Of a DNA stretch of 64,000 nucleotides, positions 15,699-23,220 are shown in pieces (the first letter of the stretch is position 1; every line of letters begins with the position of its first letter). The stretch is taken from NCBI RefSeq assembly GCF_003334785.1, contig NZ_QOWV01000001.1; one strand, 5' to 3'. Both the position numbers and the translations under genes were made by a program. A model generated the notes under the pieces. That model worked only from the letters and a program-made list of their open reading frames with translations, was not told where the DNA came from and made no database searches. The DNA is from Escherichia coli (GTDB lineage: Bacteria > Pseudomonadota > Gammaproteobacteria > Enterobacterales > Enterobacteriaceae).

Positions 15699-17342
15699 AT
15701 GTCCAGCTTGATTAATAACGCCATGAGCGGACTGAACGCGGCCCAGGCGGCGTTAAATACGGCAAGTAATAATATCTCCAGCTATAACGTTGCCGGATAT
15801 ACCCGCCAAACCACTATTATGGCGCAGGCCAATAGCACGTTGGGCGCTGGCGGCTGGGTTGGCAATGGTGTCTACGTTTCTGGTGTGCAGCGTGAGTATG
15901 ATGCGTTTATTACCAACCAGTTACGTGCGGCGCAGACGCAAAGTAGCGGTCTGACTGCCCGCTATGAGCAGATGTCGAAAATCGACAATATGCTCTCCAC
16001 CAGTACCTCTTCGCTGGCAACACAGATGCAGGATTTCTTCACCAGCCTGCAAACGCTGGTGAGTAACGCGGAAGACCCGGCAGCGCGCCAGGCGCTGATT
16101 GGGAAATCAGAAGGATTGGTGAATCAGTTTAAAACCACCGATCAATATCTGCGCGACCAGGACAAACAGGTCAATATCGCGATAGGTGCCAGCGTTGATC
16201 AGATCAACAACTACGCTAAACAAATTGCCAGCCTGAACGATCAAATCTCGCGCCTGACAGGCGTGGGGGCAGGGGCGTCACCTAACAATCTGCTGGATCA
16301 ACGCGATCAACTGGTGAGCGAATTAAACCAGATTGTTGGTGTAGAAGTCAGCGTTCAGGATGGCGGCACTTATAACATCACGATGGCCAATGGTTACTCA
16401 CTGGTTCAGGGAAGTACGGCGCGGCAACTGGCGGCAGTTCCTTCCAGCGCTGACCCTTCTCGTACGACTGTCGCTTATGTTGATGGGACGGCAGGCAATA
16501 TTGAGATCCCGGAGAAATTACTGAATACCGGGTCGCTGGGCGGCATTCTGACATTCCGTTCTCAGGATCTGGACCAGACGCGTAATACGCTTGGACAACT
16601 GGCGCTGGCATTTGCCGAGGCTTTCAACACCCAACACAAAGCCGGATTTGATGCTAACGGCGATGCCGGTGAAGATTTCTTTGCTATCGGTAAGCCCGCG
16701 GTTCTGCAAAACACGAAAAACAAAGGTGACGTTGCGATCGGTGCCACGGTAACTGATGCCTCCGCGGTACTGGCGACAGATTACAAAATCTCGTTCGATA
16801 ATAATCAGTGGCAGGTCACCCGCCTTGCCAGCAATACCACTTTTACGGTGACGCCGGATGCCAACGGTAAAGTGGCATTTGATGGTCTGGAGTTGACGTT
16901 TACAGGAACGCCTGCCGTTAACGACAGCTTCACGCTGAAACCAGTAAGTGACGCCATCGTCAACATGGATGTATTAATCACCGACGAAGCGAAAATAGCG
17001 ATGGCGAGCGAAGAAGATGCGGGTGATAGCGATAACCGCAACGGTCAGGCCCTGCTGGATCTGCAAAGCAACAGTAAAACGGTGGGCGGTGCGAAATCCT
17101 TTAACGACGCTTATGCCTCGTTAGTGAGTGATATCGGTAATAAAACCGCGACGTTGAAAACCAGTAGCGCCACGCAAGGTAATGTGGTGACGCAGCTTTC
17201 CAATCAGCAGCAGTCGATTTCCGGTGTCAATCTCGATGAGGAGTACGGAAATCTGCAACGTTTTCAGCAGTATTACCTGGCGAATGCGCAGGTTCTGCAG
17301 ACGGCAAACGCGATTTTTGATGCGCTGATTAACATTCGCTAA
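15699..17342 (+). CDS. flgK: Flagellar hook-associated protein 1, FlgK (547 aa)
   Basis: MSSLINNAMSGLNAAQAALNTASNNISSYNVAGYTRQTTI...; matches recalled FlgK. Confidence 0.95.
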   Translation: MSSLINNAMSGLNAAQAALNTASNNISSYNVAGYTRQTTIMAQANSTLGAGGWVGNGVYVSGVQREYDAFITNQLRAAQTQSSGLTARYEQMSKIDNMLSTSTSSLATQMQDFFTSLQTLVSNAEDPAARQALIGKSEGLVNQFKTTDQYLRDQDKQVNIAIGASVDQINNYAKQIASLNDQISRLTGVGAGASPNNLLDQRDQLVSELNQIVGVEVSVQDGGTYNITMANGYSLVQGSTARQLAAVPSSADPSRTTVAYVDGTAGNIEIPEKLLNTGSLGGILTFRSQDLDQTRNTLGQLALAFAEAFNTQHKAGFDANGDAGEDFFAIGKPAVLQNTKNKGDVAIGATVTDASAVLATDYKISFDNNQWQVTRLASNTTFTVTPDANGKVAFDGLELTFTGTPAVNDSFTLKPVSDAIVNMDVLITDEAKIAMASEEDAGDSDNRNGQALLDLQSNSKTVGGAKSFNDAYASLVSDIGNKTATLKTSSATQGNVVTQLSNQQQSISGVNLDEEYGNLQRFQQYYLANAQVLQTANAIFDALINIR

Positions 17343-17353
17343 GGGGAGATAAG

Positions 17354-18307
17354 ATGCGTTTCAGTACACAGATGATGTACCAGCAAAACATGCGTGGTAT
17401 CACCAATTCTCAGGCAGAATGGATGAAGTACGGCGAACAGATGTCGACGGGTAAGCGAGTCGTTAACCCTTCTGACGATCCCATTGCTGCATCACAAGCC
17501 GTAGTTCTCTCCCAGGCACAGGCGCAAAACAGCCAGTACACGCTGGCGCGTACTTTCGCCACTCAAAAAGTGTCACTGGAAGAGAGTGTACTTAGCCAGG
17601 TCACCACTGCTATCCAGAATGCTCAGGAAAAAATTGTCTACGCCAGCAATGGCACCTTGAGTGACGATGACCGGGCCTCGCTGGCTACGGATATTCAGGG
17701 GCTTCGTGACCAGTTGCTGAATCTGGCAAACACCACTGACGGTAACGGGCGCTACATTTTTGCCGGTTATAAAACAGAGACTGCGCCGTTTAGCGAAGAG
17801 AAAGGGAAATACGTCGGTGGAGCAGAAAGTATTAAACAACAGGTCGATGCTTCGCGTTCGATGGTGATAGGGCACACGGGTGACAAAATTTTCGACAGTA
17901 TTACCAGCAACGCGGTAGCGGAACCAGACGGTAGCGCTTCTGAAACCAATCTTTTTGCCATGCTGGATAGTGCCATCGCAGCCCTGAAAACGCCGGTCGC
18001 GGATAGCGAAGCGGATAAAGAAACCGCCGCTGCGGCGTTAGATAAAACCAACCGCGGACTGAAAAACTCGCTGAACAATGTGCTGACTGTTCGCGCGGAA
18101 TTAGGCACGCAGCTGAACGAACTGGAGTCGCTGGATTCATTAGGTAGCGATCGCGCTTTAGGGCAAACGCAGCAGATGAGCGATCTGGTTGATGTGGACT
18201 GGAATGCAACTATTTCATCTTACATCATGCAGCAAACGGCATTGCAGGCATCGTATAAAGCATTTACCGATATGCAGGGATTGTCGCTCTTCCAGCTCAG
18301 CAAATAA
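17354..18307 (+). CDS. flgL: Flagellar hook-associated protein 3, FlgL (317 aa)
   Basis: MRFSTQMMYQQNMRGITNSQAEWMKYGEQMSTGKRVVNPSDDP...; matches recalled FlgL. Confidence 0.95.
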   Translation: MRFSTQMMYQQNMRGITNSQAEWMKYGEQMSTGKRVVNPSDDPIAASQAVVLSQAQAQNSQYTLARTFATQKVSLEESVLSQVTTAIQNAQEKIVYASNGTLSDDDRASLATDIQGLRDQLLNLANTTDGNGRYIFAGYKTETAPFSEEKGKYVGGAESIKQQVDASRSMVIGHTGDKIFDSITSNAVAEPDGSASETNLFAMLDSAIAALKTPVADSEADKETAAAALDKTNRGLKNSLNNVLTVRAELGTQLNELESLDSLGSDRALGQTQQMSDLVDVDWNATISSYIMQQTALQASYKAFTDMQGLSLFQLSK

Positions 18308-18452
18308 TTTCGCTTTAAAACATATCATGAAACTGGGTATGTTTTGTCTGCCTGCTCTGGGATCGCTGGGGCGGGCATTTTTTTGCCTATTTTGCATTGT
18401 TGGTTAGCAAGGATGCCATTCGATGAATTTTAATATGTTGATTCAAAGATGA

Positions 18453-18481
18453 AATAAAAAAGCCCTGGCAGTTACCAGGGC
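18453..18481 (-). terminator. Rho-independent terminator of rne (hairpin also positioned to end the convergent flgL transcript)
   Basis: Hairpin GCCCTGG-CAGTTA-CCAGGGC (18462-18481); the minus strand continues into TTTTTTATTT, 22 nt after the rne stop. On the plus strand the hairpin is followed by a weaker T-rich tract (TTGATTACTTT). Confidence 0.75.
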
Positions 18482-18502
18482 TTGATTACTTTGAGCTAAT
18501 TA

Positions 18503-21500
18503 TTACTCAACAGGTTGCGGACGCGCAGGAGCGGCAGAGGCATGATGTGTTGCCGTATGACCACCTGCGGCACCTTTACCTTCGAAGGCAAAAGTAGGGC
18601 GCTGCCAGTCACTGTGACGCGGTGCCTCCGGAACATATTCCGGTGCTGGAGCGCGCGTCATTGGCGCGGTAGCGTGGTTATGCTCAACGGTGACCTCAGG
18701 TTCGACCGCAGCTACCGTTTCAACTTCTGCTGCGACTTCAGCGACTACTGGCGCGGCAGGTTGAGCAACAACTTCAGGTTCAGCAACTACAACCTCAGCA
18801 GTTTCGACAACTTCTTCAATATCTGCCGTCTCTTCCTGCGGTTCAACCACCGGTTCTGCTTGTTCTGCAACTTCCTGGGCTACGGCAACATCAGACTCGG
18901 TAATCACCTGCGGCTGTTCAGTTACCGCGGCAGCGATCACTTCAGGATGCGTCGTTTCAACCACTTCCGGTTGCGGTTCGGCAACCTGAACGGGGGCTTC
19001 TACGACACCGGCCACTTCTTCAACAACTGGCGCGCTAACAACCGGTTCGATAGCGGCGGCGACAGGGACCTCAGTCACCATCGGCTGCACATGTACTTCT
19101 TCCTGTTCGCGCTGCTCTTCAACCTGTACATCTTGCGGACGTACAATTGGATAGCGGATCCAGACTTTGCCAGAGGCCAGTTCCGGAGACGCGCACGCTA
19201 CGGTCAACGGCATTGGCGACTGGGTTGGATAACGCTCGTCACGATAGCGACGACGACGCTGACCACTTACGCGCAGGTGACGAGGCGAGCGGCGAGAACG
19301 ACGCGGCATGCCACCGTTGTCACGGTTATCAGCATTGTTCTCTTCTTGCTGTTCTGGTGCAGTTTGCGCTACGACTGGCAGCGGGACTTTCACCAGTTCT
19401 GTGCGTGGAGCTGGCGCTTCCTGAACAATTGGTTCGGCAGCGACAGTTTCTTCAACCACCGGTGCGACTACCGCTTCTTCGGCTACGCTTTGCTCGTAAC
19501 GCACTTTCTGATTGAGCTGACGCTGTTTACGACGCGGCTGAACCGGACGTACACGTTCTTCCTGTTCGGTTTCCTGAACAGATTGCTCTTCAACATTCAG
19601 CGCCTTCGCTTCTTGTTGCGCCTGACGTTTATCATCATTACGGCGGCGGCTACGTTCACGACGCGGCGCTTGCTGCTCGTCGGCGGTACGCGCTTTTTCC
19701 GTTACCTCAGCCTGCTGACGGCTCTCACGCGTCTCGGCAGTCTGCTGCTGTGCCTGGCGACGATTACGACGGTTTTCTTCGCGATTATCGCTGCCTTCAG
19801 TACGTTCACTACGGGTGTCGCGGCGCTCATTACGGTCACGGCGGTTGTTCTGACGAGGCTTGCGACGATCCTGTTGACGTTCCGGTTTCGCTTCTGCTTT
19901 CGGTGCTGGTTGCTCGGTCGGTTTGGTTTCTTCACCACCGCTGAACAGCGCTTTCAGTGCGCCGAAGAAGCGGCTCAACAGCCCAGGTTGTGCAGGAGCT
20001 GCTGGTGTTGCCGGTGCAGCTTTCGGTGCTGGAGCTACAACAGGCGCGGCAGGTTCAGCTGGCGTTGGCGCAGGCGGCACATCCGGCATGGCAAAGGTTG
20101 CCAGCGCAGGTTGTTCCGGACGCTTACGTTCAGCGAACTCTTCTTCAGACGGCAGCGCCATCGCTTCTTCATGCAGCTTCGGCAGCATGTAGCTTAAGGT
20201 TGGGGTTTCTTCCCCTTTACGCACGCGCAGCACGTGGTAGTGCGGGGTTTCCATCTGATCGTTTGGCACAATTACACAGCGCACACCGTCCTGACGAGTT
20301 TCAATGGCATTTACCGCAGAACGTTTTTCATTCAGCAGGTAAGAAGCGATTGGCACAGGAACAATGGCGTGAACTTCCTGGGTGTTCTCTTTCAGCGCTT
20401 CTTCTTCGATCAGACGCAGAATAGAGAGCGACAGCGATTCGTTGTCACGCACGGTGCCAGTACCAGAACAACGCGGACAAACGTGATGACTGGATTCACC
20501 CAGTGATGGGCTCAGGCGCTGACGGGACATTTCCAGCAGGCCAAAGCGAGAAATATGGCTGATTTGAATACGCGCACGGTCCTGACGCACCGCTTCACGC
20601 AGACGGTTTTCTACCGCACGCTGGTGGCGTACTGGCGTCATGTCGATGAAGTCGATAACAATCAGGCCGCCGAGGTCACGCAGGCGCAGCTGACGAGCAA
20701 TCTCATCGGCAGCTTCGAGGTTAGTGTTAAACGCGGTTTCTTCGATATCGCCGCCGCGGGTCGCGCGTGCGGAGTTGATGTCGATGGCCGTTAACGCTTC
20801 GGTGCTGTCGATAACAATGGAACCACCAGACGGCAGACGAACTTCACGCTGGAAGGCGGACTCGATCTGTGACTCGATCTGGTAGTGGCTGAACAGCGGG
20901 ATCTCGCCGGTGTACAGTTTGATTTTGCTGCTGAAATCCGGGCGACCTAATGCAGCGATATGCTGACGTGCCAGTTCGAGCACTTTCGGGTTATCGATAA
21001 GGATTTCGCCGATGTCCTGACGTAAGTAATCGCGGAATGCGCGAACGATTACGTTGCTCTCCTGATGAATCAGGAACGGGGCCGGGCGGCTTTCAGCGGC
21101 TTTTTTGATGGCTTCCCAGTGTTTCAGACGGAAGCTTAAATCCCATTGCAGCGCCTCAGCAGATTTGCCGACGCCAGCGGTGCGCACGATAAGCCCCATG
21201 CCTTCCGGCAGTTCAAGGCTTGCCAGTGCTTCTTTTAATTCGGTACGGTCGTCGCCTTCGATACGGCGAGAAATGCCACCCGCGCGCGGGTTGTTCGGCA
21301 TCAGAACCAGATAGCTACCCGCCAGACTGATAAAGGTGGTTAATGCCGCGCCTTTGTTGCCGCGCTCTTCTTTATCGATCTGAACAATGACTTCCTGACC
21401 TTCACGCAACACATCTTTAATGTTGGGACGACCATGAGCACTGTAGTTAGCAGGGAAATATTCGCGGGCAATTTCTTTTAGTGGGAGGAAACCGTGACGT

Positions 21501-21688
21501 TCAGCGCCGTAATCAACAAAAGCAGCTTCCAGACTCGGTTCAATGCGGGTGATTTTACCTTTGTAGATGTTTGCCTTTTTCTGCTCGTGCCCTGGACTTT
21601 CGATATCCAGGTCATACAGACGCTGCCCATCTACAAGGGCAACGCGCAACTCTTCCTGCTGAGTTGCGTTGATTAACATTCTTTTCAT
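18503..21688 (-). CDS. rne: Ribonuclease E (1061 aa)
   Basis: [61 protein letters not shown]... (S1 and catalytic domains), followed by an Arg-rich and then acidic/Pro-rich low-complexity C-terminal half; 1061 aa as recalled for RNase E. Confidence 0.97.
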
Positions 21689-22050
21689 CGTAACTTACTC
21701 ATTATTCTTACATTGACGACTAAGCTGCGGGCAAAGTAACGCCTTTCCGGGTGTGAACCGATGGCCTCGTGTCTAGTCGCGTCGCCAACCTCACGGTTAT
21801 CGTCAGCTCAAAGAGGCGCAGAGTGTCGGTTGCCCGTTTTTCATGCGGAAAAACAGCGCAATTATCAAAGAAACAGACTGGGTATTACTCTCCAGAAATA
21901 TTTCCATCTACCGGTAAGGACTGCAACCCGCAGCCCGCTAACTGCCTGAAAGATCAATACGTCTTACGCCATTGCTGCGTGGATGATCGGTCGGGCAAAA
22001 TGGGTTATTCCGTAAAATTTCTTGTTTTAACAAGGATGGACACGGAAACG
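21689..22050 (-). promoter_or_regulatory. rne long 5' untranslated leader (autoregulatory region)
   Basis: 572-bp non-coding gap upstream of rne. That rne has a leader of roughly 360 nt whose stem-loops mediate RNase E autoregulation is established knowledge; boundaries here are approximate and structures were not folded. Confidence 0.55.
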
Positions 22051-22260
22051 GCCTCATTATTCCACTGCAAGCCTTGTTATAGCAAGATGACTTTTACCAT
22101 TTATCACCCGCTTACTCACAGTTTTTTCACTTCTTGCTGGTGATTGGTTTAATAACCATCAATAAAGTGATCACGCAGTGAAGTAATAAGGTGCAAAAGT
22201 AAATATAAGCATAGAAAAATGAGTGGCGCGAATCCTGTTGGCTAATTAGAATCGCCAACC

Positions 22261-23220
22261 ATGAAAACAGAGACTCCATCCGTAAAAATTGTTGCTATCA
22301 CCGCTGACGAAGCGGGGCAACGTATCGATAACTTTTTGCGTACCCAATTGAAAGGCGTACCAAAAAGTATGATTTACCGTATTTTGCGTAAAGGCGAAGT
22401 GCGGGTGAACAAAAAACGTATTAAGCCTGAATATAAACTCGAAGCGGGTGATGAGGTGCGTATTCCACCGGTTCGCGTTGCTGAGCGGGAAGAAGAGGCG
22501 GTTTCGCCACATCTGCAAAAGGTGGCGGCGCTGGCGGACGTCATCTTATATGAAGATGATCACATCCTGGTGCTGAATAAACCTTCCGGTACGGCGGTAC
22601 ATGGCGGCAGTGGTTTAAGCTTCGGCGTTATTGAAGGTTTGCGGGCGTTGCGCCCGGAAGCGCGGTTCCTTGAACTGGTTCATCGTCTTGACCGGGACAC
22701 CTCAGGTGTTTTGCTGGTAGCGAAAAAACGCTCGGCGTTGCGTTCTCTGCATGAGCAATTACGTGAAAAAGGGATGCAAAAAGATTACCTGGCGCTGGTG
22801 CGCGGTCAGTGGCAGTCGCATGTGAAGAGCGTTCAAGCACCGTTACTGAAAAATATTCTGCAAAGCGGCGAACGTATCGTGCGTGTGAGTCAGGAAGGCA
22901 AACCGTCGGAAACACGCTTTAAAGTGGAAGAACGCTATGCATTTGCCACCCTGGTGCGTTGTAGCCCGGTAACAGGGCGTACTCACCAGATCCGTGTGCA
23001 TACACAATATGCGGGTCATCCGATTGCCTTTGACGATCGCTACGGTGACCGTGAATTTGACAGGCAGCTCACTGAAGCAGGCACGGGATTAAATCGCCTG
23101 TTCCTGCACGCTGCAGCGTTGAAGTTTACTCATCCGGGGACCGGTGAGGTGATGCGTATCGAAGCTCCGATGGATGAAGGTTTGAAGCGTTGTTTGCAAA
23201 AGCTGCGTAACGCGCGCTAA
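22261..23220 (+). CDS. rluC: 23S rRNA pseudouridine synthase RluC (319 aa)
   Basis: MKTETPSVKIVAITADEAGQRIDNFLRTQLKGVPKSMIYRILRKGEVRVN... (S4 domain + RluA-family core); matches recalled RluC. Confidence 0.95.
   Translation: MKTETPSVKIVAITADEAGQRIDNFLRTQLKGVPKSMIYRILRKGEVRVNKKRIKPEYKLEAGDEVRIPPVRVAEREEEAVSPHLQKVAALADVILYEDDHILVLNKPSGTAVHGGSGLSFGVIEGLRALRPEARFLELVHRLDRDTSGVLLVAKKRSALRSLHEQLREKGMQKDYLALVRGQWQSHVKSVQAPLLKNILQSGERIVRVSQEGKPSETRFKVEERYAFATLVRCSPVTGRTHQIRVHTQYAGHPIAFDDRYGDREFDRQLTEAGTGLNRLFLHAAALKFTHPGTGEVMRIEAPMDEGLKRCLQKLRNAR

Follow-up and report, generated by a model that had tools for sequence, protein, structure and literature searches.

The plus-strand open reading frame of 560 codons found at positions 18515-20197 of the window (the whole 64,000-nt stretch of Escherichia coli DNA that was analysed) is, with a probability of about 0.94, a non-coding shadow ORF, i.e. 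a codon-by-codon mirror of the 3' half of rne, and we infer that this frame is not expressed. Its openness results from the codon register that it shares with rne, from the scarcity of Leu and Ser in the C-terminal half of RNase E and from modest luck (P about 0.01-0.03). It displays properties expected of shadow ORFs: an exact register with the mother gene, a length that rne allows, no conservation beyond chance and the statistics of a shadow strand. The main features of the locus are:

18503 to 21688, minus strand: rne, coding sequence of ribonuclease E (1061 aa plus stop), from the ORF list, NCBIfam, Pfam and RefSeq
18506 to 20194, minus strand: rne codons 499-1061, the non-catalytic C-terminal half, without any TTA, CTA or TCA (from composition and codon counts)
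18515 to 18625, minus strand: extreme C-terminus of RNase E, Pfam PNPase_C (residues 1022-1058, E = 1.9e-17)
19613 to 19663, minus strand: Arg-rich segment [17 protein letters not shown], rne residues 676-692
18460 to 18483, minus strand: terminator-like site for rne, a hairpin followed by a T-run, just 3' of the rne stop
18515 to 20197, plus strand: antisense ORF of 560 codons inside rne, with a TTG start and a TAA stop, judged to be a non-coding shadow
18500 to 20194, plus strand: stop-to-stop open frame of 565 codons, after the TAA at 18497-18499
20195 to 20197: rne codon 498 (Leu, TTA), read as TAA on the plus strand; the last TTA, CTA or TCA of rne and the 3' end of the antisense ORF

The product of the mother gene matches the NCBIfam equivalog NF008074 'ribonuclease E' over residues 1-1061 with 2008.4 bits (cut-off, 908), and Pfam domains S1 (36-117), RNase_E_G (121-391), RNase_E_G_Thio (403-488) and PNPase_C (1022-1058) were detected. 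The S1 and RNase E/G catalytic domains are thus carried by the N-terminal half and the PNPase-binding motif by the C-terminus, the arrangement by which a ribonuclease E is recognised, and 'rne: ribonuclease E' is the RefSeq label under all the E. coli matches listed. Between positions 18503 and 20200, the window shows 100% identity with genomes of the K-12 type, and the source of the locus is a K-12-like E. coli. The full-length equivalog match, the terminal PNPase motif and the Arg-rich, Pro/Glu/Ala/Val-rich composition are all shared with the C-terminal half (degradosome scaffold) of RNase E from Enterobacterales, from which no difference was found. This half evolves fast and is rich in indels: the rne products of 80 orthologues have between 997 and 1251 aa. 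The antisense ORF overlaps, at its 5' end, the stretch encoding PNPase_C.

The composition of this half is strongly biased (Ala 14.7%, Glu 14.6%, Val 11.9%, Pro 11.4%, Arg 9.9% and Gln 8.2%), in agreement with the preliminary description, which had reported Arg-rich and Pro/Glu/Ala/Val-rich segments, and the residues 676-692 are indeed Arg-rich. That description had also called the region repetitive and of low complexity. This holds for the protein, since its entropy over 40 residues is 3.12 bits in the C-terminal half versus 3.72 in the N-terminal half, but not for the DNA: TRF detected a single array (24 nt, two copies), and the direct repeats are only degenerate ones (60-85%) that mirror the codon composition. 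DNA repeats were therefore rejected as a cause of the long frame. The proposal that GC-biased codon usage leaves the opposite strand free of stops did not survive either, GC3 being lower in the C-terminal half (0.455) than in the N-terminal half (0.556); GC1 reaches 0.80 in the C-terminal half.

The explanation that we retain lies in the register of the two frames. Codon positions 1, 2 and 3 of the plus frame fall exactly on positions 3, 2 and 1 of rne codons; therefore, stops can arise in the plus frame only from TTA, CTA or TCA codons of rne. TTA is found in rne at codons 5, 116, 151, 184, 222, 247, 299 and 498, and the mirror frame runs open from codon 498 to the end of the gene. Leu and Ser together account for 6.2% of residues in the C-terminal half versus 16.6% in the N-terminal half. 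Residues 499-1061 (563 residues) include 15 Leu and 20 Ser, and the mirror frame stays open because none of these 35 residues uses TTA, CTA or TCA (Leu is encoded by CTG in 12 of 15 cases). Most of this half consists of Ala, Glu, Val, Pro, Arg and Gln, residues encoded by codons that start with G or C. The antisense product is, as previously described, rich in Arg (15.4%), Phe (13.2%) and Leu (12.3%). Its richness in these residues and in Thr, Cys and Trp reflects nothing but the complement of rne codons, for instance GAA giving TTC, and CCG and GCG giving CGG and CGC. The frequencies of several residues are extreme (Cys 4.3%, Trp 3.0%, Lys 0.4%, Glu 1.1%), and its composition deviates by a KL of 0.47 bits versus at most 0.19 for the real genes of the window.

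How much chance is needed can be estimated. In an average gene, 563 codons without TTA, CTA or TCA would have a probability of 1.7e-6; given the RNase E protein, the probability of an open frame is 0.009-0.015. With the protein held fixed, the longest run has a median of 255 codons under synonymous resampling (P(≥563) = 0.011) and of 296 codons under permutation within rne (P(≥563) = 0.033). Correcting for no more than the 35 long ORFs of the window already removes the significance of both P values. The length of the antisense ORF (1683 nt) is unremarkable once the number of genes is taken into account.

Comparison with relatives gives the same picture. Four of 80 Enterobacterales orthologues have a fully open C-terminal mirror frame, versus 5.1 expected from the N-terminal codon usage of each orthologue, which gives no sign of selection keeping the frame open. 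Over the same 80 orthologues, the N-terminal and C-terminal halves use stop-generating codons for 7.5% and 7.8% of Leu, and for 6.9% and 13.6% of Ser, respectively. Since the C-terminal shares are not below the N-terminal ones, these codons are not avoided. A pooled Fisher test comparing the N-terminal and C-terminal halves gave p = 0.03, which we counted against the shadow reading. The plus frame is broken in all sister species examined, with five stops in E. albertii, three in Salmonella and one to six in Citrobacter, and the GTDB representative of E. coli itself has one. Within E. coli, it is complete in seven of ten sampled strains and interrupted in UTI89, 16843 and strain 135. UTI89 and 16843 carry an internal TGA, and other stops occur in L001 and strain 135. 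Searched as an exact 61-mer, the UTI89 allele with its internal stop turned up in no fewer than 187 of the 5426 complete E. coli genomes, among them that of the type strain DSM 30083.

The preliminary description had considered the ORF as an artefact that should not be annotated, and had suggested scoring the coding potential of both strands. A 3-periodic Markov model opposing coding and shadow sequences gives the plus frame -0.48 bits/codon, a value in the range spanned by the mirrors of true genes (their mean is -0.60 and their maximum -0.415). Read as rne, this DNA obtains +0.49 bits/codon, which falls in the range of the true genes themselves. Together with the unconserved frame, the lack of any Pfam or NCBIfam match for the antisense product and the lack of a promoter-like site in our scan, these scores bear out that judgement. 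In addition, an Rfam scan of 18000-22400 revealed no plus-strand family and only two chance-level intergenic matches, and neither the 560-aa product (TTG start) nor the 551-aa product (ATG start) has an exact match in a collection of 15 billion proteins. The only homologues of the antisense product are mis-calls on broken rne.

The 99 SNPs are distributed over rne codon positions 3, 1 and 2 in the proportion 61:30:8, and the SNP rate is 5.5-fold higher where changes are synonymous in rne. At rne-synonymous sites, SNPs that are nonsynonymous in the antisense frame are not depleted (53/1128 versus 8/114, not significant in this sample of 99 SNPs). Among transitions that are nonsynonymous in rne, those silent in the plus frame are enriched (21/472 versus 8/593, OR 3.4, p = 0.002). 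Lineages in which the frame is broken, used as a control, show the same bias in a weaker form (OR 1.48), and the difference between the two odds ratios, computed from counts, corresponds to a z of about 1.9. Because the bias has the same direction in broken-frame lineages, we treat this excess at rne position 1 as largely an effect of the genetic code, with a weak unexplained residue.

Signals for the expression of the plus strand were also sought. A consensus scan, which weak promoters can escape, detected no sigma-70-like site in 18309-20400. Upstream of the ORF, downstream of flgL (ORF 17354-18307), lies:

18349 to 18377, plus strand: terminator-like hairpin followed by a run of seven T, 3' of flgL

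Plus-strand transcription would end at this site, short of the antisense ORF. No suitable ribosome-binding site was seen ahead of the TTG at 18515; the in-frame ATG at 18542 is preceded, at a distance of 10 nt, by an AGGAG motif. We found no relevant report of a gene, transcript or product antisense to rne in the literature, and the papers on overlapping genes and the K-12 antisense-transcription preprint that we consulted make no mention of rne.

Some of these observations were counted against the shadow reading: the 1-3% chance of full openness given the RNase E protein, the intact frame in seven of ten strains, the AGGAG motif before ATG 18542 and the SNP excess with an OR of 3.4. The same four observations could be expected if all or much of the ORF were a young overlapping coding gene present in part of E. 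coli and overprinted on the fast-evolving C-terminal half of rne, in the manner of olg1 and olg2 of Pseudomonas aeruginosa, and frame -1 is known to harbour long antisense genes (PMC8850804). We nevertheless consider such a gene very improbable. The P value for stop depletion is lost on multiple-test correction, whereas the same kind of test gave p < 1e-10 for olg1 and olg2. The frame is truncated in the 187 or more E. coli genomes mentioned above, type strain included, as well as in L001, strain 135 and all sister species examined, and open frames occur at the chance rate among the 80 orthologues. Antisense-nonsynonymous changes are not depleted at rne-synonymous sites, and the position-1 excess is also seen where the frame is broken. 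Furthermore, the coding score is that of an ordinary shadow, the scan revealed no promoter-like site, the composition of the product is far outside that of the real genes of the window and its homologues are restricted to mis-calls on broken rne. A variant of this hypothesis, which we hold to be even less probable, is that the plus frame is translated at a low level in K-12-like E. coli, probably from ATG 18542 with its AGGAG, through read-through or spurious antisense transcripts, and constitutes a very young proto-gene overprinted on this half. If this were true, its 1683 nt would put it on a par with the longest genes of the antisense overlapping kind that have been proposed for prokaryotes.

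Openness might also be due to translational selection on rne to avoid the rare codons TTA, CTA and TCA, that is, to a systematic codon bias rather than to composition and luck. Where a gene is highly expressed, this is how its long frame -1 ORFs are classically explained (Silke 1997, cited in PMC3454372), and the preference for CTG at C-terminal Leu residues agrees with it. However, in the N-terminal half of rne, 9 of 50 Leu are encoded by TTA or CTA and 2 of 33 Ser by TCA, which indicates no avoidance. The lower GC3 of the C-terminal half does not favour such a bias, the 80 orthologues use these codons in the C-terminal half at least as much as in the N-terminal half, and composition alone lifts the probability from 1.7e-6 to about 0.01. 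This account therefore appears just as improbable as that of a young overlapping gene, and the shadow reading, with its share of luck, is preferred.

As a shadow ORF, the rne case can be compared with known systems. That the codon content of the mother gene explains long frame -1 ORFs is established (Merino et al. 1994 and Silke 1997, discussed in PMC3454372). Such shadow ORFs (Merino et al. 1994; Silke 1997; Mir et al. 2012, PMC3454372) resemble the rne case in their antisense register, with stops arising from TTA, CTA and TCA, and in a length that derives from the codons of the mother gene, without independent conservation or coding signature. The rne ORF differs in being driven mainly by a Leu/Ser-poor, low-complexity protein and not by the codon bias of high expression, and, with 560 codons, it stands at the long end of the class. 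It is also long and antisense within an annotated gene, as are olg1 and olg2 of P. aeruginosa (PMC8850804) and pop of EHEC (PMC7103648). Moreover, olg1 and olg2 were analysed as frame -1 ORFs, as is the rne ORF, and the length of olg2 (1536-1728 nt) is comparable. However, olg1 and olg2 are supported by Ribo-seq and mass spectrometry, with mapped start sites, by their highly significant depletion in stop codons, by ORFs that are intact across the clade and by purifying selection (PMC8850804). By comparison, stop depletion in the rne ORF reaches only p = 0.01-0.03, uncorrected, the frame is broken within the species as well as in all sister species examined, and neither a promoter-like site nor a clear signal of selection was found.

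The warning for automated gene callers that had been attached to this region is justified, since fragments of the ORF are already present in public protein collections: P0001 (268 member sequences), P0002, P0003 and P0004, a chimera labelled 'ribonuclease E, partial'. A protein under this label has 760 aa, the last 180 or so being nonsense from the antisense frame. Such fragments enter protein databases wherever assembly errors have disrupted rne, whether through frameshifts, scaffold gaps or fold-back chimeras. This case brings nothing new on RNase E or on overlapping genes. Its value is only that of a quality-control example, in which a biased protein segment poor in Leu and Ser gives rise to a very long mirror ORF.

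The antisense open reading frame (ORF) announced in the preliminary description was recovered by ORF listing: it starts with TTG, spans 560 codons (18515..20197, plus strand) and faces the 3' half of rne, the plus frame being open over 565 codons from stop to stop, after a TAA at 18497. The ORFs of this locus, taken from the ORF listing of the window, and two hairpins are:

15699-17342, plus strand, flgK
17354-18307, plus strand, flgL
18349-18377, plus side, terminator-like hairpin of flgL, followed by a T7 run
18460-18483, minus strand, second hairpin, serving rne, a perfect palindrome AAGCCCTGG...CCAGGGCTT
18503-21688, minus strand, rne, an ORF of 1061 codons
22261-23220, plus strand, rluC

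The rne product is a full-length ribonuclease E (NCBIfam equivalog NF008074, 2008 bits for a cut-off of 908) with the Pfam S1, RNase_E_G and RNase_E_G_Thio domains and the C-terminal PNPase_C motif. Each of the 5426 complete E. coli genomes contains the segment 18503-20200, which is 100% identical to K-12-type genomes, and in every row among the matches listed the sole annotation beneath it is 'rne: ribonuclease E'. The Rfam element RF00040 (rne5, the autoregulatory element of the rne 5' UTR) matches over its full model length at 21713-22049 on the minus strand (260 bits, gathering score 180) and adjoins the rne start codon on its upstream side. flgL and rne converge towards the hairpin at 18460-18483, which has terminator-like scores on either strand but a T-run only on the rne (minus) side.

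The antisense ORF and rne share exactly the same codon register, ORF positions 1, 2 and 3 being rne positions 3, 2 and 1 (hence "mirror ORF"). Because of this register, a plus-strand stop (TAA, TAG or TGA) requires a TTA, CTA or TCA codon in rne. The gene contains eleven such codons, the last of them codon 498, whose TTA (20195-20197) is the stop of the mirror ORF, and none in codons 499-1061. This C-terminal half is dominated by Ala (14.7%), Glu (14.6%), Val (11.9%), Pro (11.4%), Arg (9.9%) and Gln (8.2%); Leu and Ser (15 and 20 residues) make up only 6.2% of it versus 16.6% of residues 1-498. The odd composition of the mirror product (15.4% Arg, 13.2% Phe, 12.3% Leu, 8.9% Thr, 4.3% Cys, 3.0% Trp and 0.4% Lys) is the mere complement of rne codons: Phe derives from Glu-GAA (62) and Lys-AAA (12), Arg from Pro-CCG/CCT and Ala-GCG, Leu from Gln and Glu codons, Thr from Arg-CGT, Cys from Ala-GCA and Trp from Pro-CCA. 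Elsewhere in the window, the 477-codon ORF at 35190-36623 (plus strand) has a stretch of 374 codons without TTA, CTA or TCA, so the window holds a second long register-antisense open frame.

These three codons account for 2.33% of codons in the average gene of the window, for which the probability of 563 consecutive codons without any of them is 1.7e-6. Given the actual rne protein, this probability becomes 0.009 with the codon usage of the window and 0.015 with that of rne's own N-terminal half. Amino-acid composition thus explains most of the openness, raising its probability roughly 5000-fold, and the remainder is a 1-3% event. Synonymous resampling gives a longest run with a median of 255 codons and a 95th percentile of 480 (P = 0.011 for at least 563), permutation of rne's own synonymous codons a median of 296 (P = 0.033), and a pooled Fisher test of stop-generating Leu/Ser codons (11/83 N-terminal versus 0/35 C-terminal) p = 0.03. 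Once corrected for no more than the 35 long ORFs of the window, let alone for the genome, such a remainder is no longer significant. The preliminary description had attributed the open frame to repetitive, GC-biased codon usage. Low complexity is indeed seen at the protein level (40-residue entropy of 3.12 bits C-terminal versus 3.72 N-terminal), but the C-terminal region of rne is not repetitive at the DNA level. Moreover, GC3 is lower in the C-terminal half (0.455 versus 0.556), and its GC richness is located at codon position 1 (0.80), where it reflects amino-acid composition; the open frame is thus not due to GC-biased codon usage.

Among 80 rne loci of Enterobacterales (one genome per species), the mirror frame has one stop in the GTDB representative of E. 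coli (rne codon 947), five in E. albertii, three in Salmonella enterica arizonae and one to six in Citrobacter, and nearly all others are broken too, with only sporadic fully open frames (Klebsiella oxytoca, Pluralibacter gergoviae and Pantoea piersonii). Fully open C-terminal mirror frames, counting the window, occur in 4 of the 80 full-length orthologues versus 5.1 expected from the N-terminal codon usage of each gene. From the N-terminal to the C-terminal halves of these orthologues, the stop-generating share of Leu codons goes from 7.5% to 7.8% and that of Ser codons (TCA) from 6.9% to 13.6%, the latter being contrary to the direction expected if an open mirror frame were selected for. Stop-generating codons summed over C-terminal halves number 432 versus 317 expected. 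Taken together, these figures therefore show no avoidance whatever. From codon 499 to its end, rne of the GTDB representative (strain SCPM-O-B-8794) has only 89% nucleotide identity with the window. Its divergence greatly exceeds that of most complete genomes, since identity below 95% over 18503-20200 is found in only 13 of 5426, which suggests a divergent lineage or a recombinant allele.

Within E. coli, the mirror frame is intact in seven of ten sampled strains. In UTI89 and 16843, it is interrupted by a TGA resulting from a CCA to TCA change at rne Pro-594 (window-equivalent 19907), and in strain 135 by a TAG. An exact 61-mer search places the UTI89 allele in at least 187 of the 5426 complete genomes, among them that of the type strain DSM 30083 = ATCC 11775. 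In strain 135 (NZ_CP080260.1, 2425408-2427819), rne is annotated as 3300 nt (1099 codons versus 1061) and the match is 114 nt longer than the query. Downstream of rne, a TacA-family antitoxin gene occupies the place that flgL has in the window; the flagellar region beside rne thus appears to be rearranged or replaced in this strain.

Both strands were scored with a 3-periodic order-2 Markov model trained on the 34 remaining long genes of the window. The mirror ORF is shadow-like (-0.48 bits per codon, coding versus shadow), inside the range of the mirror strands of true genes (mean -0.60, maximum -0.415), whereas in the rne reading this DNA scores +0.49 (true genes, at least 0.41). No sigma-70-like site was found between 18309 and 20400, the sole match (18281-18308) lying upstream of the terminator-like hairpin of flgL. 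The start codon TTG (18515) lacks a usable Shine-Dalgarno sequence; the first ATG of the frame (18542) is preceded 10 nt upstream by an AGGAG that itself belongs to rne codons near the C-terminus. Scans found no match to Rfam on the plus strand, nor to Pfam or NCBIfam in the mirror product.

The 99 distinct SNPs from nine E. coli strains comprise 61 at rne position 3, 30 at position 1 and 8 at position 2, and their rate is 5.5-fold higher where they are synonymous in rne (Mantel-Haenszel). At rne-synonymous sites, changes that are nonsynonymous in the plus frame show no significant depletion. One pattern could be viewed as favoring a coding mirror frame: rne-nonsynonymous transitions at position 1, silent in the plus frame, are in excess (21/472 versus 8/593, OR 3.4, p = 0.002; 18515-20194, the same nine strains, a small sample of 29 events). 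However, an enrichment in the same direction is also seen in a control made of nine independent species pairs with two or more stops in the mirror frame (121/5067 versus 99/6087, OR 1.48, p = 0.005). Much of the signal therefore stems from the genetic code and from the relaxed, disordered nature of this protein segment. As calculated from the counts, the two odds ratios show a borderline difference (z ~1.9), and we do not take the weak, unexplained residual excess as evidence of coding.

The warning to gene callers proved justified, since pieces of the mirror ORF are present in databases where rne is broken. A search of the mirror product against 5.8 billion protein clusters returned five entries. 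For instance, P0001 (416 aa, 99% identical, 268 member sequences) originates from an ENA metagenome scaffold in which a 100-N gap splits rne, and in the source assembly of P0002 (NCBI GCA_025847755.1) rne differs from that of the window by 15 indels, frameshift errors that fragment the true gene; from these two sources, gene callers emitted pieces of 391-416 aa. P0004 (760 aa), which NCBI and UniRef call 'ribonuclease E, partial', lies at a contig end (NCBI LVRK01000076.1, 5716-6282). This contig follows the rne minus strand up to window position 19961, then turns onto the plus strand (19471 to 20037), the two parts overlapping by 13 nt where they join. Genuine RNase E therefore runs on into about 180 mirror-frame residues, a chimera that is most likely an assembly fold-back artefact. 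Among the matches listed, RefSeq complete genomes annotate rne and not the mirror ORF.

Long antisense ORFs in frame -1 that result from the mother gene's codon content have been described since Merino et al. 1994 and Silke 1997 and modelled by Mir et al. 2012 (PMC3454372). Judging from its sequence, the mirror ORF is an instance of this class, with the difference that the amino-acid composition of a low-complexity segment does most here, more than expression-linked codon bias. Unlike bona fide antisense overlapping genes such as the experimentally supported olg1/olg2 of P. aeruginosa, for which the same type of stop-depletion test gave p < 1e-10 (PMC8850804), it displays neither significant stop depletion nor clade-wide integrity. 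The reading of this ORF as artefactual is supported, while the mechanism first proposed is corrected to amino-acid composition. Findings of this kind are already known and this one is ordinary; the mirror ORF is of value mainly as an example for annotation quality.
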